From NCBI RefSeq assembly GCF_004010195.1, contig NC_057718.1:95366852-95430851 (forward strand): a stretch of DNA of 64,000 bases, read 5' to 3'. Position 1 is the stretch's first letter. Each line of letters opens with the position of its first letter. A program made the position numbers and the translations under genes. The notes below the pieces were generated by a model. It saw only the letters and a program-made list of their open reading frames with translations, had not been told where the DNA came from and searched no databases. This document shows positions 4,930-59,428 of the stretch, one piece after another. This DNA is from Chiloscyllium plagiosum (taxonomy: Eukaryota).

Positions 4930-5125
4930 TGGAGATGCCAGTGTTGGACTGGGGTGTACAAAGTTAAAAATCACACAACACTAGGTTATAGTCCAACAGG
5001 TTTAATTGGAAGCACTAGCTTTCGGAGCACTGCTCCTGCACAACCACCTGATGAAGGAGCAGTGCTCCGAAAGCTAGTGCTTCCAAATAACCTGTTGCGC
5101 TATAACCTGTGTGATTTTTAATATT
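4930..5125. mobile_element. Palindromic PLE-derived non-autonomous element (family B) with minimal hammerhead motif
   Basis: Arms aaaaatcacac...ggttatagtccaacaggtt..ggaagcactagctttcggagcactgctcc and ggagcagtgctccgaaagctagtgcttcc..aacctgttgcgctataacc..gtgtgattttt are reverse complements; second copy at 29985-30335. Confidence 0.75.
5045..5079 (+). ncRNA. Candidate minimal (PLE-type) hammerhead ribozyme, intact core
   Basis: CAC-CUGAUGA-A-GGAGC(AGU)GCUCC-GAAAGCUA-GUG: all core nucleotides present, 5-bp stem II, palindromic AGCU in place of stem III, 3-bp stem I; predicted cleavage after 5076. Confidence 0.6.
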
Positions 5126-7562
5126 TGATTTGTGTGCCTTGATCAATACTGATCAGTTCTGGTCATTCCTGAAGTATTCATTTTTCTGAAAGTTTTATTT
5201 TTGAAAACATGAAATGATATGACCATGAGACCAACCCATATCCTGTAATATATATGTTATATACAAATTCAACTTTACCTTGCATTTCTCATACATCTCC
5301 AACTATTACAGCACACAGCATCTTTGCACATTACTGTTTGCATCTACTGGCACAACAAACTCGGTGTCTGCTTCAAGACTAAGATAAGGCTTAGCTAATA
5401 AGATTCTATAATAGATTTTCATCCAGCAGACCACTGCTGAAAAATATCTGTGCTACCTTTGTGTGGGGAGATTCCACTCAGAGGCTGGTGTTGTGGAAGA
5501 GGGGTGTAAAAGAAGAATTTGAGGTAAACATTATTATTGACTATTCAATATTAGCACAGAGCAATGAAAAGAGGGCTGCTGCTACTGAGTTCCAAGCATA
5601 CCCTTGGTTGACGTCATTTGTTTGTCAAGGGAGATCATGGAGGAAACAAATGGGCTGATTTTGAAAAGTAAAAGCAATTCCTAAAACAAGTGGATCAATG
5701 TAATGTAAATATTATATACGTAGTTCTAAAGAAAGGTCACTGGACTCGAAATGTTGACTCTGTTTCTCTCCACAATCTGATACGGACTGAATTCTTGCCT
5801 TCTGGTATAAAGGTAAGGAGCTTTCACTGGCTTTTGGCCTACATTTGACTTGTTCTCATCTGAGCAGTGTCCTCAACTTCTTTCCAACACCCTCCATTGA
5901 GAGAAATTTTGGGATTCAATGGACACTTTGGGGCGGAAAAAAATTATCTTTTTGTTTTGAGAGAGTGAAGTTTCCTAATTTTTAAGTTCCAAGAAATTGG
6001 AGGAAAAAGAAATCCAGGAAGTGTATTGATCATGATCATCCATGATCCTATTGAATGGCAGAGCAGGCTCAAGGGGCCAAATGGCCTACCGTTGCTCCTA
6101 TTTTCTATGGCCAGACCTGCTGAGTTTCTTCATCAAGTTTTTTTTTAAGATTTCCAACATCCACAGTTCTTTGTTATATTTTAAAAGTCCTAACTCTGTC
6201 CTCTGTACCTCAAGCCCTCTGTCCTTGCAAACTAGGGCCACCTCGCTAACCTTCCTTTGTTCTCCGATATCATTCAAAGTGTCATCACCTTAAAAGTCTA
6301 TACTGATCTTTGCTGAAGCTCTATATTTGAGTTCTGCTCATCAGGTTTCCACTCTGTCATTGTATCAGAATGACTATAACACCAAAGTCACATTGACATT
6401 TTCTGTGTCTGTATCTAGGAAGCATAATCCAACCTTGTTCTCTTTAACCTCTCTACAGCCTTTAACATTATTGATCATACCATTACTTCTAATACAATGT
6501 GCCATTTACATTCTGCTTCCTGTTATCCAATCATAGACAGTGCATTTCCAGCAATATTATCTCTGACTGACCCTGCAATGATATCTTCAGAGACCGACAG
6601 ATCCATTTGTGGTCCTCCCCAATTATTTACATTTCTCCACGCAAACATTATCTGTAAGTATGAGCTCAGCTTCCATGTGTGCTTTGATGGCACCTCTCTT
6701 GAAACCTTGCACAACACTTCTGCTGCTGTACTATCATCAAATGTCACCACTTTACCATAGGCAAAGTCTTTACTGTTGACTGCTAATGTTACCTCTGGAT
6801 CGTTCTTATTTTCCTTTCATCAGCCACTGCCTCAGATTGAATGAGACTGGTTGCAATAGGATGAACATCCAACCCCATATCCACTCAATCACGAAGGTGA
6901 TATAGGTCAGGTCTGGCCACTAATTGCTGAGGGAAGATTCTGATCTGAGACATTATGTGTTCCAAGCAAGCAAGCATTTTTGACCAAGGTTACAATTTTG
7001 AGGTACAAGTGAAAACACCATGTAACACTGCCACACTGTCCATTCATGTCACTGTTGAGACGACTGGTCTTTAAAGTGTAATGATTTTATTGGGAAACTT
7101 CCACCGATAATGATGTCTCATTGTTGCAAAAGCTCCAACTGCAGAAATTCTAATGAACCACCAAAAATGACCAACTTGCCTGTCTGGATACTATTTAGAA
7201 CAAAATTAATTCATGTCAGATTTCTTCAAAAACAGGAACAAATAACTATTTATTGTAACACACACACTTTAACAAGAATAAAGGAAAGAAAGGATTTCAC
7301 TCACTCACTCACTCACTCATAATTAAGTCAGACCTATGTATTAAAAAGAAAATAGATAGGTTAATCAACATTCTGAAGATATAAAGTCCAGACCACAAGG
7401 TGAAATGATATTTTTCTCACAGTCCTTTTGATTTTTACAATGATACATTGTCTGACAGATGATGGTTATCATTTGATTTGATGGTTGATTCACGAATGTA
7501 GGCCTTTTCTTATATGAAAACTTCTTTTAAGTTTGCTTGTTTTATTTTCTGCTTTTCCCCTC

Positions 7563-7587
7563 AGAGACAGAGAGAGAGAGAGAGAGA
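7563..7587. repeat. (AG)n microsatellite
   Basis: agagacagagagagagagagagaga. Confidence 0.9.
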
Positions 7588-10420: not shown

Positions 10421-10456
10421 GTAAAAAAAAAATCCCCTTCCTCCTCAGCCCCTATT

Positions 10457-10498: not shown

Positions 10499-10756
10499 CT
10501 GCACTTCAGACCCTGTCCCAGCCTCTCCAAGTGAGTGATAGCTGTAGGACCTTGCTCGGCATTTCTTTTGTGTGTCTTAACCTCATTACCTGGAAATCGA
10601 AGCCAAATCTGACATTTATTTACGATAGAGAAACGCGCGTTGGTAGCAGCGATTCGGAAAATCTGTCGTCTCCTTTCTTAAAGCCCAGTTGAGACTAAGA
10701 AACTGTAGGGATTCTATAGTTTGGTCTAGCAATCGGCCGACGCTGAAGCTCTGGTA

Positions 10757-10910
10757 CAACAACAGAAATTGCTGGAGAAACTCAACAGGTCTGGCAGCAT
10801 CTTTGGAGAGAAAGCAGAGTTAAGCTCTGAACTGGATTCGAAACGTTAACTCTGCTTTCTCTATACAAATACTCAACTTCACCTGCAGTCTCTGTGTTTT
10901 GTTTCTTTTG
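10757..10910. mobile_element. Degenerate palindromic PLE-derived element (family C)
   Basis: acagaaattgctggagaaactcaacaggtctggcagcatc...gcagagttaa / cgaaacgttaactctgctttctc; same family as 17805-18022. Confidence 0.65.
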
Positions 10911-11552: not shown

Positions 11553-11802
11553 GTAAGTGCATTTCTTTTGTAATTTTGAAAACATCAGCGTTTCCCACTT
11601 CCCCAGTACCTCAAATAGCCGACTGGAGCAGGCTGCACAAGTAAATATATGTGACCTTACTATCGAGAATTGACACTAAAATATTGTACAATAACAGTGT
11701 TTTAGGAAGCTGAATATTTGTTACTGGAACTTTATAATCCACTAAATGGGGTTAGAGAACAACCCAGTCGGCTTGATATGATACGGTTCATTTCTAGTAA
11801 GG

Positions 11803-12030
11803 TCGAGAATGTGGTGCTGGAAAAGCACAGCAGGTCAGGCAGCATCTGAGGAGCAGGAGAATCGACGTTTCGGGCAAAAACCCTTAATCAGGAGTGAGCT
11901 CGTTTCTATGATGGGCTTATGCCCGAAACATCGATACTCTTGCTCATAGGACGCTGCCTGACCTGCTGTGCTTTTCCAGCACCACATTCTCGAATCTGAT
12001 CGACAGCATCTGCAGTCCTCACTTTCTCCT
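11803..12030. mobile_element. Palindromic PLE-derived element (family A) with mutated hammerhead motif
   Basis: Inverted arms gagaatgtggtgctggaaaagcacagcaggtcaggcagc / gctgcctgacctgctgtgcttttccagcaccacattctc; the minus strand reads CUGAUUA-A-GGGU(UUUU)GCCC-GAAACGUC. Confidence 0.8.
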
Positions 12031-16379: not shown

Positions 16380-16550
16380 GGAGAAAGTGAGACCTGCAGA
16401 TGCTGGAGTGTGTGGCGCTGGAAAAGCACAGCAGGTCAGGCAGCATCCAAGGAGCAGGAGAATTGAACTTTCGGAAGGGCTTTTGCCCAAAACATCGATT
16501 CTCCAGCTCCTCGTACCTGCTGTGCTTTTCCAGCACCACATTCGTGACTC
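16380..16550. mobile_element. Palindromic PLE-derived element (family A), internally deleted
   Basis: ggagaaagtgagacctgcagatgctggag...ctggaaaagcacagcagg / cctgctgtgcttttccagc; remnant gggcttttgccc stem. Confidence 0.78.
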
Positions 16551-17804
16551 TTCAAATAATGTCTGCTTGCAGTTCTCTATATCATCAAGTTCAGGTGCTG
16601 TTGCATACCAGAAGATCTGCTGTGATGGTGCACTATGTTTATTATTACTAATTATTTATGTACTAATTCCTGTTTATGTGTGGTGAATATATGTTTATTT
16701 CACATTTAATAAGTCATTATCTGCAGGCTTGTTTTGTGAATATATCTTAAAGTATTTTTAATCACTGTTGATAAGATAATGATAATTTAATAATTACATT
16801 TAGACTAATACCTTGGATTAATTTTCACTTTCTGAATCACCTTCAGATGATTTAAGTTGAGAATGTGTTAAACATCAGTGAAACCATGGGCAGCTCTATA
16901 CCCAGGTGCGTTAAACTAAAAACACATTAAAAATACCCTGTTTGAAACTTTAAAACCTTAAACTTCCACATTAGTTAGTAGGAATTATTAAACAAACAAC
17001 ACTATTATCTGTTAATTGAATAAAACAAATAATCCTGGTGACCGGAATTATTATGCACAAAGCTTATAAATGTATAAAGATCAGTACAAAACTCGGAAAT
17101 GTGTGAATAACATGTTTTTACACAAACTACGGTGTTCTTGGAATCAAAAGACAGATAAAATAGAGTAAGAATACTTGGTGTAATATTGGATAGCATTTAT
17201 CTGCTAATGAAGCAATTGCACAGCTGGTCAGGTAGCATCTATGGAGAGAGACAAGCAGAATTAATACTTTGAATTCATGATCTTTCTGGTCCTGATGAAA
17301 GCTGACAGATCTGAAGTGCTAACTCTGTTACTGTCTCCCCAGTTGCTTCCACAGCTTCAGAACACTTACAGCACACTCGGATTTTATTTTGAACTTTGGG
17401 CTGCTGCACTGTCAGGACAGCCTTTAGAGTAGGTTGTAATCAGGGGATCAGAGTATTAGTGAGAATGGGGCTGTGGAATGCAATCAACAGGGAAAGGAGG
17501 ATTGAGGGTGGATAACTGTCTATGTTCTTAGCTCTCGAGCTCAGTGGAGAACTCTTATCAGTTCTGGTTTCACGTTCGGATAGTTATTTTGGAAAAGCAT
17601 ACCTTTTAGATGGCAACCAGCCTTTACTGACTGCTGAGTAGGTCCACGAGGGGCTTGGTTATCCTGGAGAGCCTCTGTTCACTACATTCAGGGCAGTTCA
17701 ATTTTGAGAAACAATATTGGATCGGATGTAATGTCTGCACGTTTAAACAATTCAGTCATAGATCATTAAATATAATTAATGCAACATTATCTTATCATTA
17801 AAAA

Positions 17805-18022
17805 CCGAAAGAACAACAGGTGCTATAAATCAGAAACAAAAAACAGAAATTGCTGGAAAAACTCCGGTCTGGCAGCATCTGTGGAGAGAAATCATAGTTA
17901 ATGTTTCAGGTTGAGTGACCCTTCCTCAGAACTGGAAGGGTCACTTGACCCGAAACATTAACTGATTTCTGTCCACAGATGCTGCCAGACCTGCTAAGCT
18001 TTACCAACAATTTCTGTTTTTA
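17805..18022. mobile_element. Palindromic PLE-derived element (family C) with hammerhead motif
   Basis: Long inverted arms aaaaacagaaattgctgg...ggtctggcagcatctgtgga / tccacagatgctgccagacc...caatttctgttttt; minus 17933-17896 reads AGUU-CUGAGGA-A-GGGU(CACUCA)ACCU-GAAACAUU-AACU. Degenerate relatives near 5720, 6110, 17200, 29020 and 63080. Confidence 0.78.
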
Positions 18023-18287
18023 TTATTTTATCAATAGTGAATAAAATAACATTTTAAAGTATATTCACAAAACAAACTTGTCAATAATGACTTCTGAAAT
18101 CTGAGATGCGGTCAGCGTACGTCCAGTGAAGATTTGTACAGACTGACACCACTCACCAGTTCAGAATGTTGGGAGTCTGTTTCATGGCTCTAAGATAGGC
18201 ACAACATCAATTCATTTCTAGGCTATTGTGTTCCTGCACTGCATCTTCCTCTGTGGTAGGCCAACAGACAGCTTTCATCATTTTCTT

Positions 18288-19100: not shown

Positions 19101-19104
19101 TGAT

Positions 19105-22444: not shown

Positions 22445-22527
22445 GAGGAGAAAGTGAGGTCTGCAGATGCTGGAGATCAGAGCTGGAAGCTGCCTGACCT
22501 GCTGCGCTTTTCCAGCAACACATTTCC
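22445..22527. mobile_element. Highly collapsed family A PLE-derived element with 14-bp target-site duplication
   Basis: ggagaaagtgaggtctgcagatgctggagatcagagctg...gctgcctgacctgctgcgcttttccagc flanked by agcaaattagctta at 22431-22444 and 22528-22541. Confidence 0.75.
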
Positions 22528-22624
22528 AGCAAATTAGCTTAACCTACTTTAGCTATTTGTAAACAAAATGGGTGACTCTTTTAGCTTAACCTACTTAGAC
22601 ATTTTCAACAACTGTCTCACTGAT

Positions 22625-22846
22625 GAGCTGAAAAATGTGTTGCTGGAAAAGCGCAGCAGGTCAGGCAGCATCCAAGGAGCAGCAGAATCCACGTTTCGGG
22701 CATAAGCCTTTCTTCAGGAATTCCAGAAGGGCTTATGCCCGAAATGTCAATTCTCATGCTCCTTGGATGCTGCCTAACCTGCTGCGCTTTTCCAGCAACA
22801 CATTTTTCAGCTCTGATCTCCAGGAAGTGCAGTCCTCACTTTCTCC
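22625..22846. mobile_element. Palindromic PLE-derived element (family A)
   Basis: About 90-nt inverted arms centred on caggaattcc; gggcttatgccc stems on both strands, hammerhead cores mutated. Confidence 0.82.
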
Positions 22847-24254
22847 TGTCTCTCACTGCCTTCTATTCATCAGGTCTCCTGGATAATGCCATGGCACCAG
22901 TCTGTGAAAGGTGAAAGTCTATGGCCCCAGTCTCATGAACCACATGTTGGCAGTAATTCCGAGAGTCACTGATATTAATACTATTCTGGTTACATGCTGT
23001 AACACCATTTCATAATAACTTCAGTAGGTTTCCAGCCCTGAAAAATAGGCTTAAAACAAAAATCCAGGTTCACCATGTAGATCACACAAGTGGATGGTTC
23101 CCATCCGGCCTCAGTGTCAGACAGCATCCTCCAATCCCCACCCCAGTCAAAACAGACTGGTTTTTGCATTAGGCCTGTTTTTCATGTACTTTTCCACTTT
23201 ACTTCAATTGCTCATTGTCATTGTCAATTAACCAACCCTTAATGGTCTGGTTTGAAGATGTTATTTTTGAGCCTAACATTACAGCATTCATTGACGCAGG
23301 TGTGAAGTAGAAACAACATGGTGCCCTCTCCTAAGGAGATGGAGTTGTGCATCTCCTTAACCAGATTGAATTATTGTGAAATGGACAATGCAGAGACTGA
23401 GGAAGCAGTTAACTAGAATGGGGAAATTCAGGATAGAAAACAGAGGAAATTTATAGATTACATTAGAGAAAAATCAAGTAGAATTTTTTATTTTAACTTA
23501 GTAGGTACTCAACAAAGAGACCATAAATGCAACTGTGCAAATGTAATTAATTAACTACTCAAGTGGTTAACCAGCAGCAATTAACACTTAATTGATTGGG
23601 GCAGCTCATCATGAAATGACTTGTCCTTACATTCTGTATCAAGTTTAGTTTGTATCTACTGTGCAAACGAATGATCTTCACACCTCCCAGTGAAACATCT
23701 GAAAGGAAAACCAGACAGCAGGGTGTGCTTGTGCAAAGCTCGTAGCAGATTAGTGCATCTTGGACAGTAATTTTTGATTTTCATGCCAACATGCTCATGT
23801 GCCCAACCCTGAAGGTACTATTAACCAATCCTCTATTTATGTCAGAACATTACATCCAATACCACATACTTTAATTTTGCTAAATCAACCTCCTATAGGG
23901 GTCCTGTCAAGTCCAGCGTGCCCTGATAATTAGAGGGTGGGGGGAGTAAGGCTAAGGAAGAGTCAGGTAAGTCAAGCATTAGGAGTTGATATTTGGGACC
24001 AGGAAATGTTCCCCAAAAGATATTTACAGAGCTTCCCATTTTAGTGTGTTTTGGAATGATATCTTTAAGAGATCACTGGTTAAGCAGTGCTGAGTAGCAA
24101 AGGATAGAAAGCATGTGGCTCTGGAATTACAAAATTAACTTGACGGTCTCATTGATGACAGGTGATCTCAATTAGCATGAACTAAAATGACTCCTACCTC
24201 CGGATATACTTGGATAATGACCAAAAGCTTACTCAAAAAAGTTTTTTAAAAAAA

Positions 24255-24571: not shown

Positions 24572-24726
24572 TAGGCGATTGGAACCTAGGCAGTTTAATA
24601 GAGTATTTGAAGGAAGAGAGAGATGTCGAGATGCAAGAGCATTGGGAGACAGAATAAGAGATTGGAACCTAGGCAGTTGTTGGTTTTCTGTCAATTGTGG
24701 AATAATTAAATTGAGTGATACATGAG

Positions 24727-24918
24727 AGGATCAAGAAGTGGGGTGCTGGAAAAGCACAGTCAGTCAGGCAGCATCCGAGGAGCAGGAGAGTTGACGTTTT
24801 CAGCAAAAGCTCTTCATCAGGAATTCCTGATGGGCTTATGCTGCCTGATTAGCTGTGCTTTACCACCACTACACCTTTTGACTCTGATCTCCAGCAGCTG
24901 CAGTTTACACTTTCTCCC
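24727..24918. mobile_element. Degenerate palindromic family A PLE-derived element
   Basis: gtgctggaaaagcacag...ttcatcaggaattcctgatg...ctctgatctccagcagctgcagtttacactttctcc. Confidence 0.72.
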
Positions 24919-26670: not shown

Positions 26671-29221
26671 CTTGAAACTATTGCCTGAACTGGGAGAACT
26701 GGCCAGTACCCTTCCATTGTTAAACACCTTAAACTCTTTGGCACCTTTGCCTTTACATCCCCTCTTCAAAAAACTAAAAAAAATTAATCTTTTTAAAGTG
26801 ACAGCATTGATACAGTACATAGTGTTCAGAAATCTTCGCATTTGTATCAGAAGTAGATAGATTGGATTATTCTATTTTCTTTTGCAATATAAGTCTATTT
26901 TGTTAAGCACACGCTGGTACAAACTTACTTATGTTTCACTATGTGACCACAGAGATAAAACCAAAACAAAAAAAATTCAAACCATCAGGCCAGGTTCCTG
27001 TCTCGGATCTGACCTGTTTGGTAATAAGATTAGCTGGGATCATAATAGTTTGTGGAGTTTTAAATTTTCATAGCCAGAATTATCTTCAAAATTTATACAA
27101 AATATTTAATACAAAAAGATATTGAACGTGTTTGATTGGTTCTTACTTTCTTGTTGCAAAGCTTTGAATATCATACACTTTGGCTGAGGCACTGAAGTGT
27201 TTCCTATTGCGATTGTTGTAAAGATTACACAGACATCAAAACTACATGAGAAGTAACTTTCCCAGTAAAATGGTCCATAGTTAAAGTATACATGTTTGGT
27301 TGTACTGAAGGTAGAAACAGATTTGGGACTCCAGAAACTCACTCCATACCTCCACCTAATGGTTGAAACCTGCAATTATATTGTGGAAATTCAGACATCA
27401 AAACTGAATAAGAATGATTGGCATAGAATTTTACAAAGTTGATGGCAAGGATTGGTTAAAAAGAAATCCGGAAATACAACATATGGACATGAAGTGCACA
27501 TTACCTCCATACACCTTTAAGATATTACATTGAAAGAATCAATGGAGATTAGGAAATATAGTGATTTATAACTTTATTTTACTTCCAGTGCATCCAGTAC
27601 TCGAATGTGACTTCAACTTATGGGCTGCATTGCAGGTTGTAAGGGAGCTTAATAAAAGACAACCTCAATTTACCTCCTACTACTGACTGGTAAAATTACA
27701 TATGAATTAGTTGTTCCCCTCCACAGGGATGGCTGGAGCTGAGAAATGGAAACATTGTCTTTTAAGCCTGAAATTAAGCTAGTAGACAGGAAGAACTTTT
27801 GATTGTAATTGACTTGCATCTTTGAGAGCTGGGTAATATAATGCCAATATTGACAGCTATAATATTCAAGTGAATAAATAATTCATCTTTTCTTTAATGT
27901 AGCTCTTCCAAAAACTGAAAAAGATTAAAAGGATGTTCTAAAGGACAATATGCATTCAAGAGATAATTCTGCTACAGTAAAATAGATAACCAGATTCCTG
28001 TTTCAGGATGACCTCGATTGCACAAAGGCCAAGTATTTTAACCATCAGTTATTTTTGAAATAGAGTTGAGAACTAGAGGACGCCAACTTAAATAAATGTT
28101 AAATGAATCAATTACAATTTAAAAAAGAAATACAGCAAGAGGTTAAGAGCTGGAATGGGTGTACTGAGAGTGTGGCGGAGACAGATTTAATTGTGGCTTT
28201 CAAAACAAAATTGGATAATGAAAAGAACTGTAGGCCACAAGTGGTGGTGTAGGGCCTTGTGACCGTCAGTGATTTTGTACACATATACTTCTGGGTCTCT
28301 GACATTACATCTCATTTAGAATTGTACCCTTTATTTGATACCGACACTCCATATTCTCCCTACCAAAATCAATCACTTCACATTTCTCTACATTAAGCTT
28401 CATCCGCCACTTGTCCACCAATCTATGCCCTCAAGTTTATCTCTACGATCTCCACAGTTCACAATACTTAAAAGTTTGTGTCATTTACAGATTTTGAAAT
28501 TGTGTACACACCAAAGAGTTTTTTTTGCCAGGAACAGCAGGTTCAAACAGCAACATCTGGAATACCACTGCATCCCCTCTCCAGGAAACTCAATCATTTA
28601 CTATTACTGTTTCCTGGCACTCAGCCAATTCCATATAGCTATTGAGCTTAAGGAATAAAAAGGTGGGTAGCAATCAATGTGCTACATAACAGGCATGTCC
28701 TCTATCAATTGCATTACCTTAATAAAATAACTCCAGTTAACCAAATTACCTTTTAAAATAATTGCTGGTTTTCCATTGTTAATATGCAGTTGCTCAAATG
28801 ATTTAACTGTGTCCCAATTTATTGTCTGAAAGCTTTTCCACAATAGATTTGAACAGGTTTGTCTGAAGTTAAAGTTTATCCTTATACCTTTCTTGAGCAA
28901 AGATGCAGCAGTTACAATTTTCCAGTCCTCTGACAGCACTTCAGTGTTTTAGAATTGGAAGACTATAGTCAGTCAGTACCATCACAATTTCCACACTTGT
29001 TTCCTTTTGTATTCACAGAGAAAGTTAACATTTCAGATCTGGAATTTTGACCAGAATTGCTAACTACTTCTTTTGCCTTAGATGCTGCCAGATCTGCTAA
29101 GACTTTCCAGCATTTACTTCTATTAGAGTAGCATTTATTCTGTCCTACAGTTGGAAAATTTCTGTTGGCATATTCTTGCATTGAGTTGAGATAAATAAAT
29201 TGTTTTCCATTGTCCCCAAAG

Positions 29222-29683: not shown

Positions 29684-29984
29684 AGGCAATACTGAAATGG
29701 CAAAATGCAGTTGAATTCAATAACAATTACTTAACCACAGGGCCTGAACAGCATATTCTACAACAGAAGATTACACCGTATAACACATTTCTGGTGGGAT
29801 ACATTACAACTGTACACTTTTTTTAAGTAAACAAAATGATGCCATTTACAGCGCACAATTGGGAAATCTGGGATAGATATTTCAAAAAATTCATAAGAAT
29901 AAATTTAAGTAAATAAAAACTTGCATTTACATAGTATGTTTATGACCTTATGGTGCTTGTGTTATAACTAAAGGACTATGACAT

Positions 29985-30335
29985 AGAGGTGCTGGTGTTG
30001 CACTGGCGTGGATAAAATTAAAAATCACACAACACTACGTTATAAGTCCAACTGGTTTATAGAACAAAGTCTGTTATCTGAATGTCAATTGTCTGAATTT
30101 CGGATTATCCAAACAAGATCTCAAGGTCCCATAAAAATGTTATCCGAACAAAACACTCCCCACCTTGATTCAGATAATCGAGGTTGTTCTGTATTTGGAA
30201 GTACAAGCTTTCTTTTACTATAAACTGCGTGTCCTACGATCCTGCCCCATTAGCTACATGACAAAAGAGCAGCACTCAAAGCTTGCACTTCCAAAAAAAT
30301 TTGTTGGACTATAACCTGGTGTGTGGTTTTTAACA
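29985..30335. mobile_element. Family B palindromic PLE-derived element, split by a MITE
   Basis: aaaaatcacacaacactacgttataagtccaac...tttggaagtacaagcttt / aaagcttgcacttcc...gttggactataacctggtgtgtggttttt. Confidence 0.7.
30060..30191. mobile_element. Tc1/mariner-type (Tigger-like) MITE with TA target-site duplication
   Basis: Imperfect TIRs tagaacaaagtctgttatctgaa / ttcagataatcgaggttgttctg, flanked by TA at 30058-59 and 30192-93; removal restores the host palindrome. Confidence 0.65.
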
Positions 30336-32005
30336 ACTGAAGGACTAATTAAAGTGTCAATTGGCATCACTCTAATGTTGGAAATATTGCAATTTGTGCA
30401 AACGATCAAATAGTTTACCATTAATGACCAGATAATTTACTAAATAAGGTAGGTGAGATACTGGTGGGTGGTGTAAAACTACACACTCTAAAATAGAATT
30501 AAATGTTACATTCTCCTTAAGTTTTCATTGAGAATGAGAAGTTAGGTGGCCAGCAAACAACTTGCCCACCCATCTGGGTTTAATGCATAATTAAAGTCTC
30601 AATTGATCCCAATAATACATATCTTTCTATAGTTAGGCAGTAGTGAACAGCCTGTTTTTAAGAAATTAAAAAAGATGGTGGTGGTATTGTAGATGAGAGA
30701 ACAAACTTCAATTTATCACCTCTGTTCAGATGCAGATTTTTTTCACTCATTTTCTACTGTTCTCACTGTTATAGAATTAACACTTCAATACACTGCAGAG
30801 CTGTTTTTCATGTCCTGAGTAAAGTACAGCATTTGAACTGATCAAATGCTGAGACTTGGGAAATTGTTGTGCATAAATTTGTTTTGGGAATTGTCTTCCT
30901 ATGTACATTTTCAAGCACAAAGCTACTTTAGGTCCATATTTAATCTAAGGATGCAGTTGAATACTTAATCTTCTAGGCTTGTGACAAATTTTATAAGCAT
31001 CCATTTTGGATAGGCAAATCCTTTTTGTAATTGCTTATCTGACCTCAAAAGTGCACTGTTCTCAGTTCCCACATTACAGAAATAATGAAAATTGAGGAAC
31101 TTTAAAGAGCTATCATTTATACATTGTAGTACAGTCTCAACTCACCCATACTTCCAGATAGTGTAGATAATGCTTAGTTTAGCTATCACACTATGAAATG
31201 CTCTCCTCCAGGGAAGGTGATCTTGTAGACCAGTTGGCTCAAGCTTCCTCTCACAATCACATATTTCCAATTACATGCACAGGATCAGAGGTTTACCTCT
31301 TCCAAGAAACCCTGGCATCTTTTTCATCTTTCACTGAAGTACAGCAATTACACAAATTGCTTTCTGTATTTCTAAAGACTGGAGTCACGTTACTTGAAAT
31401 TGCAGCAATGGCATCTTTAGGAGCTGCATGGTCTCAATCTACACCTTTGCGTAAATCTCAAGTTACTGCACAGATCATAGATTTAAACAAGCTGGCCCTG
31501 CTAAATCAGCAGAGGTCAGCATTTACTCTAGCATCAGTGCACACAACTGAATAGGGTGACCACCTCCTTCCTCTCACCACTTCCCATCCTTCCCCAACAG
31601 GGATGTGACTTATATTACTGAGTGAAATGCAACCTTCCTTAAAAATTCTGTACTACATGTACAATGTCAATTACAATGATAAATTCAGGTTGGGCTTTTA
31701 TCCCCCCAAAACATCCACTGAGGGATCCATACCAACAAACATATGAACATGATTAAAACCATAGGTAGTAATATATAACAATCATGCAATAGATAGAGTA
31801 AATAATATTATGTTGGTAAACTGAGCAGTACCAGATTCAGTTCTAATATGGATATTAAAAAACAAAAATGCAACATGTTAATATAAATAGTACAAACTGT
31901 ATAACCTACAAAAAGGTACTAATTTATTTTTAAAAATGTTAACTCTCATGCAGGGAAGATGATAAAAGCATTTATTTAGCTCCCAGTAACCCTAACTGTG
32001 AAGTA

Positions 32006-33135
32006 GGGAGAAAGTGAGGACTGCAGATCAGAGTCGAAAAGCATGGCACTGGAAAAGCACAGCAGGTCAGACAGTGTCCAATAAGAGTGTTGATGTTTTG
32101 GGCATAAGCCCTTCATCAGGTATGTGAGGAAGGGGGAGCCGAGAGATAAATACGAGGGTGAGGGTGGGAGAAAAAGGTAGATACAGGTGGGGGATGGTGG
32201 TGATAGGTCAGAGCAGATAGGTGGGAAGGAAGATGGACAAGTGGGACAGGTCAAGGAGCAGTACTGACTTGGAGGGTTGGGTTTGGAATGAGGTACGGGG
32301 AAGGGAGATAACAAAACTGGTGAAGTCGACGTTGATGCGGCATGGTTGGAGGGTCCCGAGACGAAAGATGAGGCTTTCTTCCTCTGTTGGTGGGTGGCAT
32401 GGATTTGGTGGAGGTGGCAACCCAAGACTTTAATGTCCTTGGCAGAGTGGGAGGGAGAGTGGTCAGCCACAGGGCAGTGGGGTTGTTTGATGCGTGTGAC
32501 CCAGAAATGTTCCCTGAAATATTCCACGAGTTGGCATCCTGTCTCTTCAATGTAGAAAAGACCACATTGAGAGCAACAGAGAGTAGATGAGGTGTATGGA
32601 TATGCAGGAAAATCTCTGCTGGATGTGGAAGGATCCTTTGGGGCCTTGAACAGAGATTTTGGGGGGGGTGAGCGCAGGTTTTACATCACTTGCGGCAATA
32701 AGGGACAGTGCCAGGAGTGGAGGGTGGGCTGGTGGGGTGTGCACCTAATGGGAGAGTCACATAGGGAATGGTCTCTGTGGAATGCAGATGGGGTGGGGAG
32801 GGAAATCTCTCTCTGGTGGTGAGGTCTGATTGTAGGTGGTAGAAATGGTAGAGGATAATGCACTGTATCTGGAGATTAGTGGAGTGGAAGGTGAGGACCG
32901 GGGAGTTCTAGTCTTGTTGCAGTTGGAGGGGTGGGGTTCAAGGGCAGAGGTGCAGGAAGTGGAGATGCATGGGACGGCATTGCTCATTATGTGGGAGTGG
33001 AAATTGCAGTCTTTGAAATAGGAGGCCATCTGGGATGTCCTGGAGTGGAAGTGCTCCTCCTGGGAGCAGATATGGCAGTGGTGTAGTCCAGGTAGTAGTG
33101 GGAATTGGCAGGTTTGAAGTAGATGTCTGTGTTGG
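32006..33135 (-). mobile_element. Penelope-like retroelement fragment (RT C-terminus, GIY-YIG endonuclease, 3' terminal repeat with hammerhead remnant)
   Basis: Minus ORF pieces SVQGPKGSFHIQQRFSC, FREH, EESLIFRLGTLQP..INVDF; downstream cctgatgaagggcttatgcccaaaacatc and the family A terminus. Confidence 0.85.
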
Positions 33136-33151
33136 AGAAGCTGAGAAGAGC

Positions 33152-33322
33152 AGAAAGTGAGGACTGCAGATGCTGGAGATCAGAGCTGAAAATGTGTTGC
33201 TGGAAAAGCGCAGGTCAGGCAGCATCCAAGGAACAGGATTCCTGAAGAAGGGCTTATGCCCGAAACGTCAATTCTCCTGTTCCTTGGATGCTGCCTGACC
33301 TGCTGCGCTTTTCCAGCAACAC
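33152..33322. mobile_element. Family A palindromic PLE-derived element with 16-bp target-site duplication
   Basis: Flanked by agaagctgagaagagc at 33136-33151 and 33323-33338; inverted arms. Confidence 0.83.
33236..33275 (+). ncRNA. Candidate minimal hammerhead ribozyme (core intact, stem I weakened)
   Basis: CUGAAGA (33242-48)-A-GGGC(UUAU)GCCC-GAAACGUC; predicted cleavage after 33269. Confidence 0.5.
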
Positions 33323-41569: not shown

Positions 41570-41910
41570 TAGCGAGTTTTGAGAAGATTGTAGCTCAGGT
41601 TGAGGTTCTGCATGTAGGTTTGCTTGCTGAGCTGGAAGGTTCATTTTCAAACATTTTGTGGCATTCCAACCAGAACTCTATCAACAAACACATTGACCTG
41701 AACCCGACTTACCACCCCCTGAGAAAAAGAACAGGAAATGACATCACCATAGGAAATGACATCACCAACCCAAAGAAACCCAAACATATAAATAGAAAGC
41801 GGAATCATCGGTAGTGCTTCATCTGCAGGCTCACTGAAGATGTTACCTTGTATGGTGACAAAATGTCTGAAAATGAACCTTCCAGCTCAGCGAGCAAACC
41901 TACATCCACA
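41570..41910 (+). mobile_element. Penelope-like element 3' end (family D) with inverted terminal segment and decayed hammerhead
   Basis: WHSNQNSINKHIDLNPTY resembles a PLE GIY-YIG C-terminus; 41613-41658 is the reverse complement of 41859-41903; UCA-CUGAAGA-U-GUUACC(UUGUAU)GGUGAC-AAAAUGUC-UGA at 41831-41870. Confidence 0.72.
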
Positions 41911-42544
41911 TCTAAGTAACTCAGAAGATATTCTTACAGGGCAAAATCAAACAGTATTAGAAGACAGAATAATTAGAATTTGCAAATCACAACAAACCAA
42001 TAATATTTAATGTGAGATTTAGAACTGGAAAGTTGTGGCTTTCTCGACACGGGTGTTAAATTTATTAGCAGAACTAATACTGTCTGATCTTTCTTAATAA
42101 TACTTTTGCTTGGTTTTTATGCACACTTAGATATCCAAGTGCATTGCCAATGATTCATTTCTAATGTGTAAATCATGAAGCTTACGTAGCAAGTGCTATA
42201 AGGGAGGGAAATTCAATTAGGAAATTACAACTTTTAATTTGTTAACGAAAATAATCAACATTGCATCAACATCCCTAACCCAAACATGCAATTCTTTGAA
42301 GTGAACTCTTATTTCTCTCACCGATCCACTGTTCACTCTGTACTCAGCAATTAAACATGTGCCACAAAATTTGAATTTGTTTTTAAAAAAGGAAAGAAGT
42401 GATATCAGCAGATTAATAGACATGATAGTGAATCAAGAACACAGCACGGATTAAAGAAGATATTCTGAAGTCTTCGTAACATTTGTACTTTGAGGTTCAT
42501 TTGCACAAATATCCATTGTAGATCATGTTTACATTTCTACAGTA

Positions 42545-46099: not shown

Positions 46100-46317
46100 T
46101 TCCCCCACCCTCCTCTCTGACCTCCATCCCCACCCCCTTTCACCTATCGTACTCTATGCTACTTTCTCCCCACCCCCTTCTCATTTCTCTCTTCACACTG
46201 CAGGCACCCTGCCTCTATTCCTGATGAAGGGCTTTTGCCCGAAGCGTCGATTTTCCTGCTCCTCGGATGTTGCCTGACCTGCTGCGCTTTTCCAGCATCA
46301 CTAATCTAGACCCCCTC
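46100..46317 (+). mobile_element. Solo PLE 3' terminal repeat (family A) with 14-bp target-site duplication and near-intact hammerhead
   Basis: Flanked by ccctcaatattata (46086-46099, 46318-46331); CUGAUGA-A-GGGC(UUUU)GCCC-GAAgCGUC at 46221-46248. Confidence 0.8.
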
Positions 46318-47118: not shown

Positions 47119-47249
47119 CTAGAAAGCAAAGTTTGAGATCCATTTAGTTCTAAATAGAATATTAAGTTCATCCCCAGTTATAGCAAAAATCAGTGACATA
47201 TGTACAAAATATTCTTAAAAATTTCAGATCTTTAACAGATGTCATGTGA

Positions 47250-50756: not shown

Positions 50757-51290
50757 GGAGGAAGTGAGAACCACAGATACTGGAGAGTCAGAGTCAAACA
50801 GTGTAGTGCTGGATAAACCACAGCTGGTCAGGCAGCATCTGAGGAGCAGGAAAGTCAACGTTTTGGGCGTAAGTCCTTCATTGGGAGTTTGGAGGGGAAA
50901 AGGGGGGCTTAAAAGATAAATAGGGGGTTAAGAAAGGTTGGTGGGATGGTTATGGATGGATCAGGTAGGAGGTGATTTTGATATGTCAGAGGGGAGGGTG
51001 AAGCGGATGATTGGGAAGGAAGATGGACAGGTAGGTCAGGTCCAGAGAGCAGTGCCAAGTTGGAGGTTGGATGTAGGGAGATTTGGAAACTGGTGAAGTC
51101 AATATTGATGCTGTGTGGTTATAGGATCCCTAGGCAGAAGGTTAATTGTTCTCCTTCCAGATGGCGGGTGGCTTTGATTTGGCAGTGGAGGCAGCCCAGG
51201 ATTTGCATGTCCTTTGGGGATGGTAGGGAAACGAAGTGGTTGACCACAGGGCATGAGTTGTTTGGTGCATGCAGACCAGAGATTTCCCTG
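50757..51290 (-). mobile_element. Penelope-like element 3' end with family A terminus
   Basis: Same sequence family as 32006-32530. Confidence 0.78.
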
Positions 51291-53249
51291 AACGGCACCC
51301 CTTACATTTATCCATCTTATACTTTTTCTGCCATGCATATGCCCACAACTTGGATCAAATCACACAAACACCTCTGCAATCTCCCAAGTTCAACCTTCCA
51401 TCCAGCCTTTTGCCTGAAAACCTGAGAGATATTACCTTTAGTTCCCTCACCTAAATCATTTAATATTGTGAATTGCCAAGGGTGAAGCACTGATCGCTGT
51501 GGTACTGCACAAGCCACTGGCTGACACTTAGCAAAGACCCGTTTATTCCTATTGTTTCCTGTTGCCAGCAGTTTCTTTTGTCTATGTCAGCACATTACCT
51601 CCCATGCACTTTAATTTTACATGCTAATCTCTTAAATTGGACCTTACTGAAATGTATATTACACTTTCTCATTTGTGATTTAAGGCATTATACCCATGAA
51701 TGTACATGAAATCAATCATACCAAAAGTTAATGTAACTGCACTTTTGGGAAGTAAAATTAATGTGGTACTTTATGATTACTAGTCAAATAATATGAATGA
51801 GTAACAATTACATTTGATTGCAGGTAGGTACATTAGCTGAACATTTCTTCAGAGTTTCTAATTTGAGATTCTTACAATGACTAATGTAAGCTAACGACTG
51901 GAGATAAATGTTACCTGAAAAATTCTTGAACTGTAAACTCCCACTTAATTTTCAAATACAAACCCAAAGAGTAATGTTAAAAAAAAAGTCTGATGGTCCA
52001 TCAGCAACTGATAAGTTTTAACAAACTTTCCAACTTTTTCGTTCATCTCTGCCTGAGACAAAGTTATCTGTCACCTAATCCAGTCTTTTGCCACACATTA
52101 TTTGTAGCAAGGTGGATAGGGAATTCCTCCACAGTTCTCCAACAATGTTCATCTGATCAGTTCCTGAATAAGTACCCAATCACAATATTCTCGCTCAAAT
52201 AATGACATTCAGTTTATTACAATAACCTCTTCAGTGCTGTTGGCCCCCCAAAAGCTGTGTGTAATACTTTCTATAGATCATGGTATAACTTGTACTCATG
52301 CTATTTAAGTTAATCAGGAATGTAAGTAATTGTTAATCATAACAGATATTGTTATGATTTGGACCAGGATGCCAAATTTGTGCCAAATGCAGTGATCAAT
52401 AGCCTTCTTTTAAAAATGTAGGCATAGAGAGAGATCTATGGGTTATACTATTCAGATAAAGCCTTAAGACTCCATTGTTTTGAACTTTGCCATACAGTTT
52501 CTTCATGCATTGTAGATTGTATTTGAGTACCCAGAATGAACGTATGGTCAATATGGGCAATTGACTGACCAAATGTCAAACAGCACATAGCGAAGCCAAT
52601 CAAAATAAATCCCGCATGAATAAATGTGAACAATACTATAAATTACAAATCATTTTGCTTGTTTTCCTAATCCCTAGCTGTATTTATACAATCAAGTTGC
52701 CATAGTCTTACCAAACCATAGCGCTACTCTTTCATCAGAGAGCAATGACCGGTGGTGATTTAACCAGAGGATCACCATGCCTCAAGCGAGGGTAGAGGCT
52801 GAGAAGGAGAATCCTTCAGGGTAACCTCAGCTCCGGACACCACACTGCTTTGCAAACAATTCCTTCAGCCGATAACACTCTTCGATTAACATACCAAGAC
52901 ATCTGATCCTCCTGCAACCTCTCCTAATTCCTGTGAATGTTGAAGGTGGTGCATGGGATATTAATCAAGCAGGCTGCTTTGTTCAGGATCATGTCAAGCT
53001 TCTTAAAATGCTGTTGGTGCTACACCCACCCAGGTAAATGTAAATTATTCCATCATACTCCTGATCAGTTTGGGAAGATTTGTAGCTGTAACAGCTGCCC
53101 CTTTTGAGGTATTTTAGGTGTTCGAGGTGGTTTCCTCGAATTCCAGGAGCACCAATTACTGTTGTATAAGCTGTTGCATTGTTTTGGAACTTAGGAGGTA
53201 AAAAAAATTAAAACAACAGCACTTTTTAAAAGAGAGAAAGACAGACAAA

Positions 53250-57139: not shown

Positions 57140-58860
57140 GGAGGGGAGGGGAGGGGAGGGGAGGGGGAAAGAGACCGAGCTGAGAAAACGATAGGTAGAT
57201 GAAGATGAGGGACAAGGTAACAGGTCAGCGGGTTGAGTCAGAGCTGATAGATCGGAAAGGTGATGGACAGGTCAGGAGGACAGTGCTCAGTTGGAGGCTT
57301 GGGACTAGGATAATGGTGGGGGGTGGGGTGGAAATGACCAAACTGTTGAAATCCACATTCATTCAGTGTGGTTGCAGGGTCCCAAGGCGGAATAGGAGGC
57401 GTTGGGTGGTAACAGTTTGGTGGAGGCGGCGGCCCAGGACCTGCATGTCCTTGAGAGAGTGGAAGGGGGAATTGAAATTTTCAGCCACAAGGCTGGGGTT
57501 GGTGGGTGCAGGTTTCGCAGAGATGTTCTGAAACGTTCTGCAAGGAAGCATCCTGTCTCCCCGATGTAGAGGATCACAGAGTGCAATGGACACAGTAGAT
57601 GACATTGGTAGAGATACAGGCAAATTTCTGTCGAATGTGGAAGGATCCTTTGGGGCCTTGGACAGAGATGAAGGGACTGGTGTGGGCGCAGGTTTTGCAA
57701 TTCCTATGGTGGCAGGGGAAGGTGCCAGGAGTGAGGTATGGGCTGTTCCTGGGGAAGTAGACCCGACGAGGGAGTTGCAGAGGGAATGGTCTCTCCAAAA
57801 CGCTTATAGCGGTGGGGAGGGAAATATACCTCTGGTGGTAGGCTGTGTTTGGAGGGGGTGGATGATGCAATGTATACAGATGTTGGTTGGAAGGTGAGGA
57901 CTGGGTAGTTCTTTCCTTGCATTGGGAGGGGTGGGGTTCAAGGGCAGTTAGTGCGGGGAGTGGAGGAGATGCACTGGAGAGCACCATCAATCATTTGGGA
58001 ATGGAAATTGAGATCTTGGAAGGAGCCATCTGGGATTTTCTATGGTGGAATTGGTCATCCTGGGAATAGATGAGGCAGAGGAATTGGGAATAAGGGATGA
58101 CATTTTTACAGGAAGTAGGGTGGGAAGCGGTGTCTCGGTAGCTGTGGGAGTCTGTGGGCTTGTCGTAGATGTCAGTGGTTAGTTGGTCACTGGAGACGGT
58201 GATGGAGAGATCCAGGAAGGGGAAGAAATTGTCTGAGATGCTCCCGGTGAATTTGATGTCAGGGTAGAAAGTGTTAGTAAAGTTGAAGAACTGTTCAAAC
58301 CTCTCGTGGGAACATGAGGTGGTGCCAATACTGTCATCAATATAGCGTAGAAACAGGTGGGAGAGGGTGGCGCTAGTGTAACTGCGGAAGATGGACTGTT
58401 CCACGTACCCGACAAAGAGGCAGGCATAGCTGGGTCCCGTGCGAGGTGCCCTTGGTTACCCCTTTGGTAAGGAGGACGCAGGAGGATTGGGAAAGATCAG
58501 TTCAGCCATGCGGATGAGGGTGTCAGTGGAAGGGTACTGGGTGAGACGGCGGGAGAGGAAGAAACGGAGTGCTTGGTGGCCTTCATCCTGGCGGATTGAT
58601 GTGTACAGGAAGTGGATGTTCATGGTGAAGAGGAGAGATTGGGAGCCAGGGGTAATGAAAATCTTGAAGAAGGTGAAGGGCATGGGTGGTGTCCCGAACA
58701 TAGGTGGGACGTTCCTGGACTAAGGGGGACAGGACAGTGTCAAGATAGGCAGAGACGACTTCAGTGGGACAGGCACAGGTTGAGACAATGGGTCGACCAG
58801 GGAAGTCAGGTTTGTGAATCTTTGGTAGGAGGTACAATCAGACGGTGCAGGCTTGCCAGG
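57140..58860 (-). mobile_element. Penelope-like retroelement (RT plus GIY-YIG), degenerate
   Basis: YLLPKIHKPDFPGRPIVS, FLRYIDD, FPFLD, YDKPTDSHSY, NVIYCVHC..LYIGETG, LLFRLGTLQP. Confidence 0.9.
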
Positions 58861-58861
58861 C

Positions 58862-59428
58862 TAAGAGGTTGCACCTGATGTGGTCTCCTCTACATCGGGG
58901 AGACAGGATGCCTCCTTGCAGATTGTTTCAGAGAACATCTCTGAGACACCCGCATCCACCAACCCCGCTATCTCGAGGCTGAACACCAAACTCCCTCCCA
59001 CTCCGTCAAGGACATGCAAGTCCTGGGCCGCCTCCACTACCAAACCGTTACCACCCAAAGCCTGGAGGAAGAACACCTTATATTCTGTCTTGGGATCCTG
59101 CAACCACATGGGATGAATGTGGATTTATACAGTTTGGTCATTTCCCCTCCCTCCACAATATCCCAGTCCCAAGCCTCCAACTCTGCATTGCCCACCTGAC
59201 CTGTCCATCTCCTTTCCCATCTATCCACCCCACCCCCACCCACCGACCCCCCCCCNNNNNNNCCCCCCCCCCCCCCCCCACTTATTTCTCAGCCCTTTGG
59301 CCCACAAGCCTCATTCCTAACAAAGGGCTTATGCCCAAAACGTCAATTCTCCTCAGATGCTGCCTGACCAGCTGTGCTTTTCCAGTGCCACATTCTCGAC
59401 TGATCTCCAGCATCTGCAGTCCTCATCA
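58862..59428 (+). mobile_element. Inverted second PLE 3' segment (GIY-YIG end plus family A terminus)
   Basis: CGLLYIGETG, EEEHLIFCLGILQPHGMNVD, then gggcttatgcccaaaacgtc and tgatctccagcatctgcagtcctca. Confidence 0.85.
59256..59262. other. Assembly gap (7 N) in a poly-C tract
   Basis: nnnnnnn between C runs. Confidence 0.99.

Follow-up and report, generated by a model that had tools for sequence, protein, structure and literature searches.

Minimal hammerhead ribozymes (min-HHRs) have been described in the pLTRs of metazoan Penelope-like elements (PLEs; Cervera and De la Pena 2014, PMC4209133). They are of type I, lack helix III, are palindromic at residues 15.2-16.2, carry a bulge before stem II and a G10.1-C11.1 pair, occur as several families per genome, and are mostly single motifs from truncated copies, with some opposite-strand pairs 100-700 bp apart. 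The repeats described here share all these properties; the main text of that study names no shark and reports no pile-up of 5' ends. Its counts, ~4,000 in the coelacanth and ~9,000 in Xenopus, come from a descriptor different from ours, which gives ~31-78 matches per Mb, or ~110,000-280,000 per genome by extrapolation. The insertion unit of endonuclease-bearing PLEs, as set out in the excerpted texts of Arkhipova et al. 2013 (PMC3846280) and Craig et al. 2021 (PMC8557442), is likewise recognizable here, with an inverted 5'-truncated copy beside a direct one, a 30-40-bp tail at one end, a short target-site duplication and solo pLTRs, as are the TATA and Inr-like pLTR motifs and the Zn-finger linker of Neptune-type ORFs reported in those excerpts. 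Non-LTR retrozymes, according to excerpts of two sources (bioRxiv 10.64898/2026.07.22.740005; PMC7229834), are also non-coding, carry a type I hammerhead, derive from PLE pLTRs and have been reported in one chondrichthyan; they are head-to-tail tandem units each with a ribozyme, whereas here we find dispersed solo copies and head-to-head palindromes. A literature search on shark PLE hammerheads and on run-off, twin-priming or cap signatures of PLEs returned nothing on point, and the supplements of PMC4209133 or of the bioRxiv study may list such families.

We analyzed a stretch of 64,000 nucleotides from Chiloscyllium plagiosum (contig NC_057718.1, positions 95,366,852 to 95,430,851; hereafter the window). 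Its hammerhead repeats belong to four coding PLE families, A to D. Their short solo and palindromic copies (stubs) are single insertions, which we think likely to be dead-end run-offs made from the parent RNA at its capped 5' end. The elements are ordinary Penelope debris, a known kind of sequence and not a new mobile RNA.

Hammerhead repeats in the window and their coding parents

An earlier sequence-only reading of the window cited nine hammerhead sites, all of which were found at, or a few bases off, the coordinates it gave. It overlooked that the majority of the short copies are 100-240-nt palindromes with two tail-out arms. The features, with window coordinates and strand, are:

4927..5129 (.), palindromic stub of family B; the minus arm (4927-5039) is long-tailed and the plus arm (5040-5129) short-tailed
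5045..5079 (+), family B intact minimal type I hammerhead: C3 at 5048, tetramer AGCU, arm start at -8 (5040)
5721..5774 (+), fragment of a family C hammerhead, decayed
10737..10892 (.), family C palindromic stub, part of the hammerhead gone at the centre
11786..12025 (.), family A palindromic stub; core on the minus arm at 11891 without G8
16401..16554 (.), family A palindromic stub, arms joined within stem II
17217..17413 (.), inverted pair, old and C-like
17815..18025 (.), palindromic stub of family C; the minus arm holds a hammerhead (C3 at 17929) whose tetramer has become ACAU by decay
22445..22536 (.), inverted stub of family A consisting of tail only; 14-bp target-site duplication 22431-22444 / 22528-22541
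22623..22850 (.), palindromic stub of family A, flanked by an 8-bp duplication (22615-22622 / 22851-22858); G occupies position 17 of the minus-arm core at 22717
24721..24911 (.), palindromic stub of family A, centred on GAATTC and internally deleted; missing from the earlier list
29050..29131 (+), decayed family C arm
29981..30337 (.), inverted pair of family B, older; its minus arm is 29981-30060 and its plus arm 30255-30337
32015..33081 (-), family A parent copy, 5'-truncated, ~1 kb: thumb, linker, GIY-YIG remnant, 3' UTR, hammerhead (32119, G12 lost), tail
33152..33322 (.), palindromic stub of family A; 16-bp target-site duplication 33136-33151 / 33323-33338; intact hammerhead 33238-33273 (+)
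41574..41932 (.), family D (putatively Poseidon-type) insertion: inverted tail arm 41574-41659; plus arm from ~41660 containing the end of the ORF, a TATA box and a hammerhead (C3 41834, G12 lost)
46100..46312 (+), family A solo copy with ~120 nt of 3' UTR; core at 46221 without A15.1
50765..51292 (-), family A copy, 5'-truncated, GIY-YIG end
57237..58860 (-), decayed Penelope-like ORF with frameshifts and stops: LLPKIHK, YIDD, CX4CX2C linker, LYIGETG; putatively Neptune-type parent of A
58868..59427 (+), inverted 3' end of the 57237..58860 element: GIY-YIG end, 3' UTR, decayed hammerhead (59317), tail
63079..63183 (+), decayed family C solo arm

The hammerhead pattern recurs far above chance: a 1-Mb sample contains 78 strict descriptor matches against 0-2 in five dinucleotide shuffles, and the matches show the core of the PLE min-HHRs (CUGANGA / GAAA / UH, stem II and the bulged base). 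Family profile searches on reversed sequence gave 0 matches. A single 32-nt pattern of family A, matched exactly, has 46,872 occurrences in the genome and 0 in the reversed control. The copy number is very high, the earlier reading having proposed a high-copy system; insertions number ~256 per Mb, an estimated ~0.9 million in the genome, and ribozyme-plus-tail arms alone make up 3.2% of the sampled bases. Rfam searches with E up to 10 gave 13 weak matches, none to a hammerhead, and the miRNA-like ones are the palindromes.

Of the nine cited sites, only two retain an intact core together with a self-complementary tetramer: 33242 (+, A) and 5048 (+, B). The other seven are damaged: G8 is lost at 11891 (-, A), position 17 is G at 22717 (-, A), G12 is lost at 32119 (-, A), 59317 (+, A) and 41834 (+, D), A15.1 is lost at 46221 (+, A), and the tetramer is ACAU at 17929 (-, C). 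The changes in C and D had been marked in the sequence-only reading and those in A overlooked. Among arms spanning the hammerhead the core is intact in 57/123 (A), 18/43 (B), 8/53 (C) and 7/17 (D), and the catalytic G12, conserved in only 58-82%, decays at the CpG rate. The assertion that stem I stays paired holds only in part: its four pairs form in 86, 92, 43 and 62% of 104 core-intact copies (counted by script), and the commonest family-A variant (AUUC/GAUU) carries a U-U mismatch. Helix III is absent as stated, the tetramer being palindromic in 63 of the 104 core-intact copies and a CpG-decay form of ACGT in 33 more. Contrary to what had been supposed, the families are not all unrelated: the tails of A and C align; a cross-family MAFFT alignment was uninformative.

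Each of the four families is the terminal repeat of a GIY-YIG-coding PLE, in agreement with the predicted association with PLE ORF ends. The architecture of the endonuclease-bearing PLEs, a single ORF encoding an RT and, at its C terminus, a GIY-YIG domain, is seen in L057 (725 aa, a relative; RVT_1 E 2.8e-6 and GIY-YIG E 6.5e-4, both below the Pfam curated cut-off) and L059 (RVT_1 match above that cut-off); of the B and C parents the endonuclease end alone was seen. In family A the tail runs on into the ORF, and two such copies (L294 and L295) start at -1 and -4. Going by motifs, from which the clade labels are taken, A, B and C are classed as Neptune-type and D as Poseidon-type: the CX2-5CxxC linker before the endonuclease, given as a Neptune criterion and also found in Nematis in the excerpted text of PMC8557442, is present in the A, B and C parents and absent in D. 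Pfam searches of 32 window ORFs and 15 stop-read-through frames gave no PLE domain, and the motifs were read directly. RT candidates number 48,235 in the genome. Open frames of 1,100-2,200 aa proved to be artefacts of N runs, and the analysis recovered no element that was both intact and of full length. Target-site duplications and two 3' end points 30-35 nt apart uphold the proposal that a Penelope RT/GIY-YIG enzyme mobilized these copies. A DNA-transposon (MITE) origin was rejected, as the tails are unequal, the duplications variable (10-20 bp) and the parents RT-coding.

The 5' boundaries and the likely start of the parent RNA

The 5' boundary lies within 20 nt of C3 in 98/176 arms of A, 9/18 of A3, 32/58 of B and 70/94 of C (together 209/346), as against 0/29 in D and D2 (p 1e-11). 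Boundaries spread across ~25 nt and are graded rather than confined to a single base; as the profiles begin at -8, they may compress there if a parent subfamily is missing. Of the Neptune-type arms, 128/346 start at -10..+4. Only 17/346 arms start at the cleavage site, +25..+34, and we rejected that site, whether through stalling or run-off, as the principal cause of the boundaries. The A, B and C parents have a TATA or TATA-like box 33-40 nt upstream, the starts lie ~30 nt after such a box, and short B and C copies begin downstream of their parents' box; family D has a TATA box at -48, yet no pile-up, which the run-off model leaves unexplained. The Penelope promoter of D. virilis is internal and TATA-less in the excerpted text of PMC2377424, so the boxes seen here need not be used.

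In family B the base at -9, where non-parental (not C), is G in 62, T in 27 and A in 11 of the first 100 of 2,584 cases, against G 15, T 68 and A 17 at the control position -10 (first 100 of 2,331; both hand counts), giving p 7e-12 for the G excess and 1e-4 for G:A. Untemplated G is a mark of the cap in L1 and SVA (PMC4859970, in excerpt). G precedes the start in 5/6 cases in A (p 0.045) and 3/7 in C, both underpowered, and the signal is firm in B alone. Among 13 G cases picked for a 10-nt context without an inverted arm, the G ends an untemplated linker in 4, lies in or probably in the target duplication in 4, possibly belongs to the opposite arm in 3 and is unassigned in 2. The opposite arm is G-rich, and part of the excess in B may thus be plain microhomology.

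Taken together, the pile-up at the ribozyme edge, the TATA spacing and the G before the start suggest that the stubs are likely run-off copies of a capped, uncleaved RNA 5' end; as they would copy the very start of the parent RNA, their ends likely record where it begins. We regard the following course as quite probable. Counting from C3, Pol II would start at -8 in B and at -4 in A and C, so that the ribozyme would occupy the first 35-40 nt of the transcript. Priming internally at the tail, at +88 or +120, the RT would copy the uncleaved RNA up to the cap and add a C, and the cDNA would integrate. Internal initiation at two sites, extension of both strands and uncleaved RNA as the main substrate are known in vitro for an Anolis element (PMC11167929). 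The stubs would lack the upstream promoter and decay neutrally, and the ribozyme would most likely be active in parent transcripts only, as a dimer or with protein assistance, its predicted cut removing the capped leader. RNA reads on a family-A stretch show no start or end peaks, the material being a polyA single-cell library and contigs unsuited to this question; of four RNA runs compared, none has such a peak and X22 gave 0 reads.

The same boundaries might also result from ordinary 5' truncation of copies made from the 3' terminal repeat, through RT stalling on the hammerhead or an endonuclease cut nearby, in which case the pile-up would be unrelated to the transcription start. This accommodates the graded boundaries, the continuum of longer truncations (53/346 Neptune-type arms extend >100 nt) and the ATT at -4 in family A, a motif preferred by the Anolis enzyme (PMC11167929). 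A stall, however, should fall on the 3' side of stem II, and few arms end in that interval (+20..+32); family D, whose stem II is longer, shows no pile-up; B lacks the ATT motif; and the G excess at -9 and the TATA spacing are left unexplained. We consider this account improbable.

Formation of the palindromes

In the sample, tail-out pairs outnumber tail-facing ones 75 to 3, and exactly one long tail is present in 59/75 tail-out pairs (37.5 expected; p 6.5e-7). By arm class the 75 pairs comprise 10 long/long, 1 long/short and 64 short/short. Duplications of at least 10 nt accompany 29/64 palindromes (controls 0-2) and 19/91 solos (controls 0-1), and together with the inverted truncated copy and the 30-40-bp tail at one end they reproduce the insertion pattern of the endonuclease-bearing PLEs. 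The palindromes are predicted to fold as long hairpins in which stem I is not formed, and many stubs are predicted to yield 90-100-bp double-stranded RNA when host transcripts read through them.

There is perhaps an even chance that both nicks of a staggered cut are primed, one per tail site, and that microhomology then links the cDNA of one nick to that of the other, head to head, which would produce the palindromes. Given the same parents and the same dead-end status, and with a pile-up that may still mark the RNA start, palindromes could instead form by fold-back (self-priming) of one cDNA or antisense RNA; excerpts of PMC3846280 and PMC8557442 favour self-priming on an antisense template, and the former proposes self-priming for rotifer Penelope elements. 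Several centres hold short snap-back copies of stem II, the arms of A palindromes resemble each other more (0.898) than other copies (0.843), the subfamily letter is identical in both arms in 50/50 listed A centres, and arm lengths are matched in class; fold-back or a single template fits these letters and classes as well as two-primer joining does. Against fold-back, the loop measures just 0-1 nt in 10/50 listed A centres (GAATTC, GAATC), which is too short for a single strand to fold back on itself, one of the 75 pairs is an A/C chimera, arm boundaries within the 64 short pairs are uncorrelated (rho 0.17, p 0.19), and the rule of one long and one short tail simply follows from two initiation sites. 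We judge fold-back rather unlikely. For Neptune-type elements in general we offer a more tentative proposition, possible but somewhat short of probable, that transcription starts on the first strand of the hammerhead and that the RT copies the capped, uncleaved end from two internal sites at both nicks.

Status of the stubs and comparison with known systems

The sequence-only reading took the families for self-propagating, non-autonomous, retrozyme-like ribozyme elements served by Penelope enzymes in trans, a view that we find very improbable. Family C is nearly all short (0/94 sampled arms extend 50 nt upstream), as such elements would be, but coding parents are known for C as for the other three. 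A few A centres recur (GAATC in 8/50 and GAATGATTC in 5/50 listed), but these span two subfamilies and match short microhomologies, and the 50 listed centres take 36 forms by hand count, with B centres varied too. Two-hammerhead units with internal deletions exist (L291, L292, L297), but each has its own junction, and no family-wide unit boundary emerges. Head-to-tail tandem hammerhead units, the hallmark of retrozymes, are absent as arrays from the sample, where 375 arms include 10 direct pairs within 1 kb, all differently spaced. Stubs do appear in RNA reads, but from both strands and with mixed flanks; one RNA contig has a go-back joint that genomic tandems explain equally. The excerpted text of PMC3846280 has cis-acting pLTRs mobilizable in trans, and non-coding pLTR transcripts may have served as trans templates for some of the stubs, though for no more than one generation. 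The decay of G12, the target-site duplications of the insertions, the lack of a TATA box in short B and C copies and the predicted hairpins of the palindromes count against self-propagation.

The replication cycle of Penelope elements and the role of their ribozyme are described as open questions in PMC11167929 and in the excerpted text of PMC8557442. Should the stubs be run-off products, this single genome would supply natural data in very large number from which the 5' end of the RNA could be fixed, the template would be uncleaved, and the Neptune and Poseidon clades would be mechanistically separate. On the more tentative reading for Neptune-type elements, several hundred thousand genomic stubs would be intermediates of a strong-stop-like kind that became integrated; they would document the Penelope cycle in vivo, with a difference between the Neptune and Poseidon clades, and the ribozyme, whose cleavage is predicted, would be a leader-removing switch and not a monomer-releasing cutter.

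Relative to the insertion unit in the excerpts of PMC3846280 and PMC8557442, there are usually two terminal stubs only (64/75 pairs), and the ends cluster at the ribozyme in Neptune-type and not Poseidon-type elements, with a G excess. The biochemical study of the Anolis carolinensis Poseidon element PAc (Frangieh et al. 2024, PMC11167929) concerns one element in vitro and does not address Neptune, palindromic stubs or transcription starts. Mechanistic likenesses are seen with LTR elements and L1, whose enzymes are of a different class from that of Penelope. Minus-strand strong-stop DNA of LTR elements is primed internally near the RNA 5' end and runs off at the cap, as the stub model proposes here. 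L1 offers a cap-derived extra G and priming from both target strands (PMC4859970, in excerpt); the inverted segment of an L1 twin-priming product consists of upstream sequence, whereas here both arms begin at the same tail.

Hammerhead motifs and their Penelope-like parents

The nine hammerhead sites of the sequence-only reading are all present at the positions it gave, and a descriptor search showed the motif to be far more frequent than expected by chance: the core plus a stem II of at least 3 bp was matched 78 times in 1,000,000 bases (twenty 50-kb blocks placed at round coordinates chosen beforehand) versus 0-2 times in five dinucleotide shuffles. With a stem I of 3 bp added, 31 matches were obtained in the 1,000,000 bases versus 0-1 in shuffles. 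Across the 3.56-Gb assembly there are 46,872 instances of one exact 32-nt family-A pattern and 0 of its reversed control. An intact core together with the palindromic tetramer is found in just two of the cited sites (33242 and 5048); the site at 17929 has kept its core. The tails of families A and C can be aligned to each other. Two other families are absent from the window, namely D2, a second Poseidon-type hammerhead family, and A3, an A-related variant with a compensatory stem I (AGUC/GACU); they were encountered elsewhere in the genome (loci L052, L069 and 12 sampled arms, D2 and A3 together).

Features of the window

57237-58860, minus strand: decayed PLE ORF with LLPKIHK, YIDD, CX4CX2C linker and LYIGETG
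58868-59427: inverted 3' end of the 57237-58860 element, ending in a family-A ribozyme
13585-15282, plus strand: open frame of 565 aa with a high content of Glu, Asp, Ser and His and with dibasic sites
53-1111, 2675-3147, 12066-12432, 19717-22119, 47219-48330, 49238-50392, 55524-56778: APE-type LINE copies
3624-3924, 24255-24570, 60477-60687, both orientations: a further dispersed repeat, ~300 nt long

No Pfam match was obtained for the 565-aa frame, which presumably resembles a large exon of the granin type (chromogranin B-like). The APE-type LINE, which we take to be CR1-like, matches RVT_1 at 47219-47965 and Exo_endo_phos_2 at 19717-20181.

The RT core of the decayed PLE ORF has 48,235 first-look candidates across the genome, and a 725-aa natural frame at one of the loci read (L057) matches RVT_1 and GIY-YIG, both below the Pfam curated cut-offs. 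Upstream extension of long B copies reaches a GIY-YIG end with the CX4CX2C linker as in the A parent, and that of long D copies reaches RT and GIY-YIG without the linker. As 0 of 94 sampled family-C arms extend 50 nt upstream, family C looked parentless at first; the upstream flank of a single locus (L137), used as query, yielded 2,634 candidates, and those that were read have a Neptune-type GIY-YIG end. The Penelope origin proposed in the sequence-only reading thus holds, each of A, B, C and D running into a GIY-YIG-coding PLE parent. Because the linker is present in the first three and absent in the last, the criterion in the accessible text of PMC8557442 classes A, B and C as putatively Neptune-type and D as putatively Poseidon-type. 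Long N runs just past the RT core are very frequent in long PLE copies (L051-L070); hence, intact elements are probably under-represented in the assembly.

Copy structure and the formation of palindromes

An enlarged sample of 24 blocks (1,200,000 bases, 28,553 of them N), searched with six local profiles, contained 375 arms, i.e. ribozyme-plus-tail copies, in 300 insertions (~256 per Mb), which amounts to roughly 0.9 million insertions genome-wide if the sampled blocks are representative. Inverted pairs are tail-out in 75 cases versus tail-facing in 3, and both sides are short in 64 of the 75. Of the 64 short palindromes, 29 lie between duplications of at least 10 nt, versus 0-2 in mismatched-flank controls; for the short solos, or single arms, the figure is 19 of 91, versus 0-1 in controls. 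Each is therefore one insertion event. The 3' ends form two groups ~30-35 nt apart, and exactly one long tail is present in 59/75 pairs (37.5 expected). This structure is the PLE insertion unit, as described in the accessible portions of PMC3846280 and PMC8557442, reduced to its ends. At ~15822 in the L161-L165 block of loci, one palindrome is a chimera of a family-A and a family-C arm, which meet at the edge of the ribozyme.

We consider the chances about even that the palindromes form by two-primer joining, in which two initiation sites on two nicks would give one long and one short tail. The subfamily letter is common to both arms in 50/50 centres listed (~26 expected), and both arms accordingly come from one source. 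Fold-back would also account for the shared letter, and is a possible but rather doubtful route to the palindromes: the loop would be 0-1 nt in 10 of the 50 centres listed, one of the pairs combines an A arm with a C arm, and the one-long, one-short tails fit the two initiation sites on two nicks of two-primer joining.

Centres, tandems and the retrozyme-like reading

A palindrome that propagates itself would transmit its centre, and the diversity of centres is therefore a test of the non-autonomous, retrozyme-like elements envisaged in the sequence-only reading. The family-A centre pattern is present at 8,488 loci, with 36 forms among 50 matches listed (hand count); the commonest, in 8 of these 50, occurs in both subfamilies and is explained by 1-2-nt microhomology. 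Family-B centres (801 loci) are likewise varied. Direct tandems number 10 among the 375 arms, each with a different spacing, and internally deleted two-ribozyme units among 14 loci inspected each have a private junction. The catalytic G12 is part of a CpG and survives in 74% (A), 76% (B), 58% (C) and 82% (D) of arms, compared with 95-100% for the adjoining A13 and A14; this loss of a CpG-borne base beside retained neighbors indicates that the copies decay with no selection for activity. Retrozymes by definition consist of tandem units, according to the accessible part of bioRxiv 10.64898/2026.07.22.740005, which places these copies outside that group. With varied centres, scarce tandems and a decaying G12, self-propagation is not borne out. 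For three window palindromes the predicted fold is a long hairpin, with energies from -115 to -127 kcal/mol and a stem I probability of 0.00; stem I is also weak in the predicted folds of isolated A and C arms.

In the family-A loci L290-L302 an internal deletion has joined the 3' UTR to the initial 140-185 nt that follow the tail, and some (e.g. L291, L292, L297) carry two ribozymes ~270-330 nt apart. The breakpoints on their 5' side fall close together, which suggests a hot spot of template switching; deleted copies of this type are potential retrozyme precursors.

The 5' pile-up and the base before the start

With C3 of CUGANGA as position 0, the ribozyme cut site falls after +27 in A and after +28 in B. 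Arms start no more than 20 nt from C3 in 209/346 Neptune-type cases versus 0/29 Poseidon-type cases. Neptune-type starts, for which the boundary is graded rather than one sharp position and its reading is limited by profiles that begin at -8, number 128 at -10..+4 versus 17 at +25..+34; the template RNA is thus mostly uncut by the ribozyme. TATAAA is present in the parents at -40 to -38 in B (27/42 long copies) and at about -33 in C; in A, 48/101 have the variant TTTATCT, placed at -37 to -35. Read by initiator and TATA-spacing rules, initiator-like motifs follow: CCACAA in B, where the adenine is at -8, and TCATTC in A and TCAGTT in C, both of which place an adenine at -4. In family D a TATA box is found at -48, and there is no pile-up. 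The family-A tail is continuous downstream with the N-terminal part of the PLE ORF. L294 and L295, the copies that reach furthest into it, start at -1 and -4, as expected if the pile-up marks an RNA 5' end. Branch-point, pyrimidine-tract and AG motifs resembling a 3' splice site precede an ATG in the C tail (e.g. window 17886-17905, minus strand), and the A tail has such motifs where it ends.

Among family-B copies intact to -8 with a non-parental (not C) next base, the base before the start is G in 62, T in 27 (mostly mutated parents) and A in 11 of 100 matches listed of 2,584, versus G 15, T 68 and A 17 one base further out (p 7e-12); the same test is underpowered in A and C. Inspection of 13 G cases gave 4 that are untemplated, 4 that lie within the target or probably do so, 3 that may derive from the opposite arm and 2 left unassigned. 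A target-derived G still fits pairing to an added C; an arm-derived G does not discriminate between the readings.

Among the reads of one raw single-cell polyA run, 2,395 match a family-A stretch at a level of at least 85%. Both strands are represented, and depth over ribozyme plus tail is 40-100x that of either side; the flanks are mixed and there is no start or end peak. These reads speak neither for nor against the start site. A second raw run had no reads on this stretch. The pattern mirrors the genomic copy structure, suggesting read-through of many stubs, i.e. short solos or head-to-head palindromes.

No paper dealing with these families, or with signs of run-off or cap copying in PLEs, came up in a literature search that had subscription papers, Repbase and Dfam outside its scope. 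PMC4209133 already describes families of minimal hammerheads, isolated motifs left by truncated PLEs, and pairs on opposite strands; its accessible text names no shark. The comparison also covered the accessible parts of PMC6765202, PMC6155905 and PMC2377424. The significance of the present families is carried by the clade-specific 5' pile-up and the G signature. An extra G ahead of full-length L1 and SVA copies has been read as cap copying (PMC4859970, accessible text). As far as the accessible text of PMC11167929 goes, the uncut template agrees with what was found in vitro for the Anolis element PAc, which also resembles family D in having an ATG where stem II begins.
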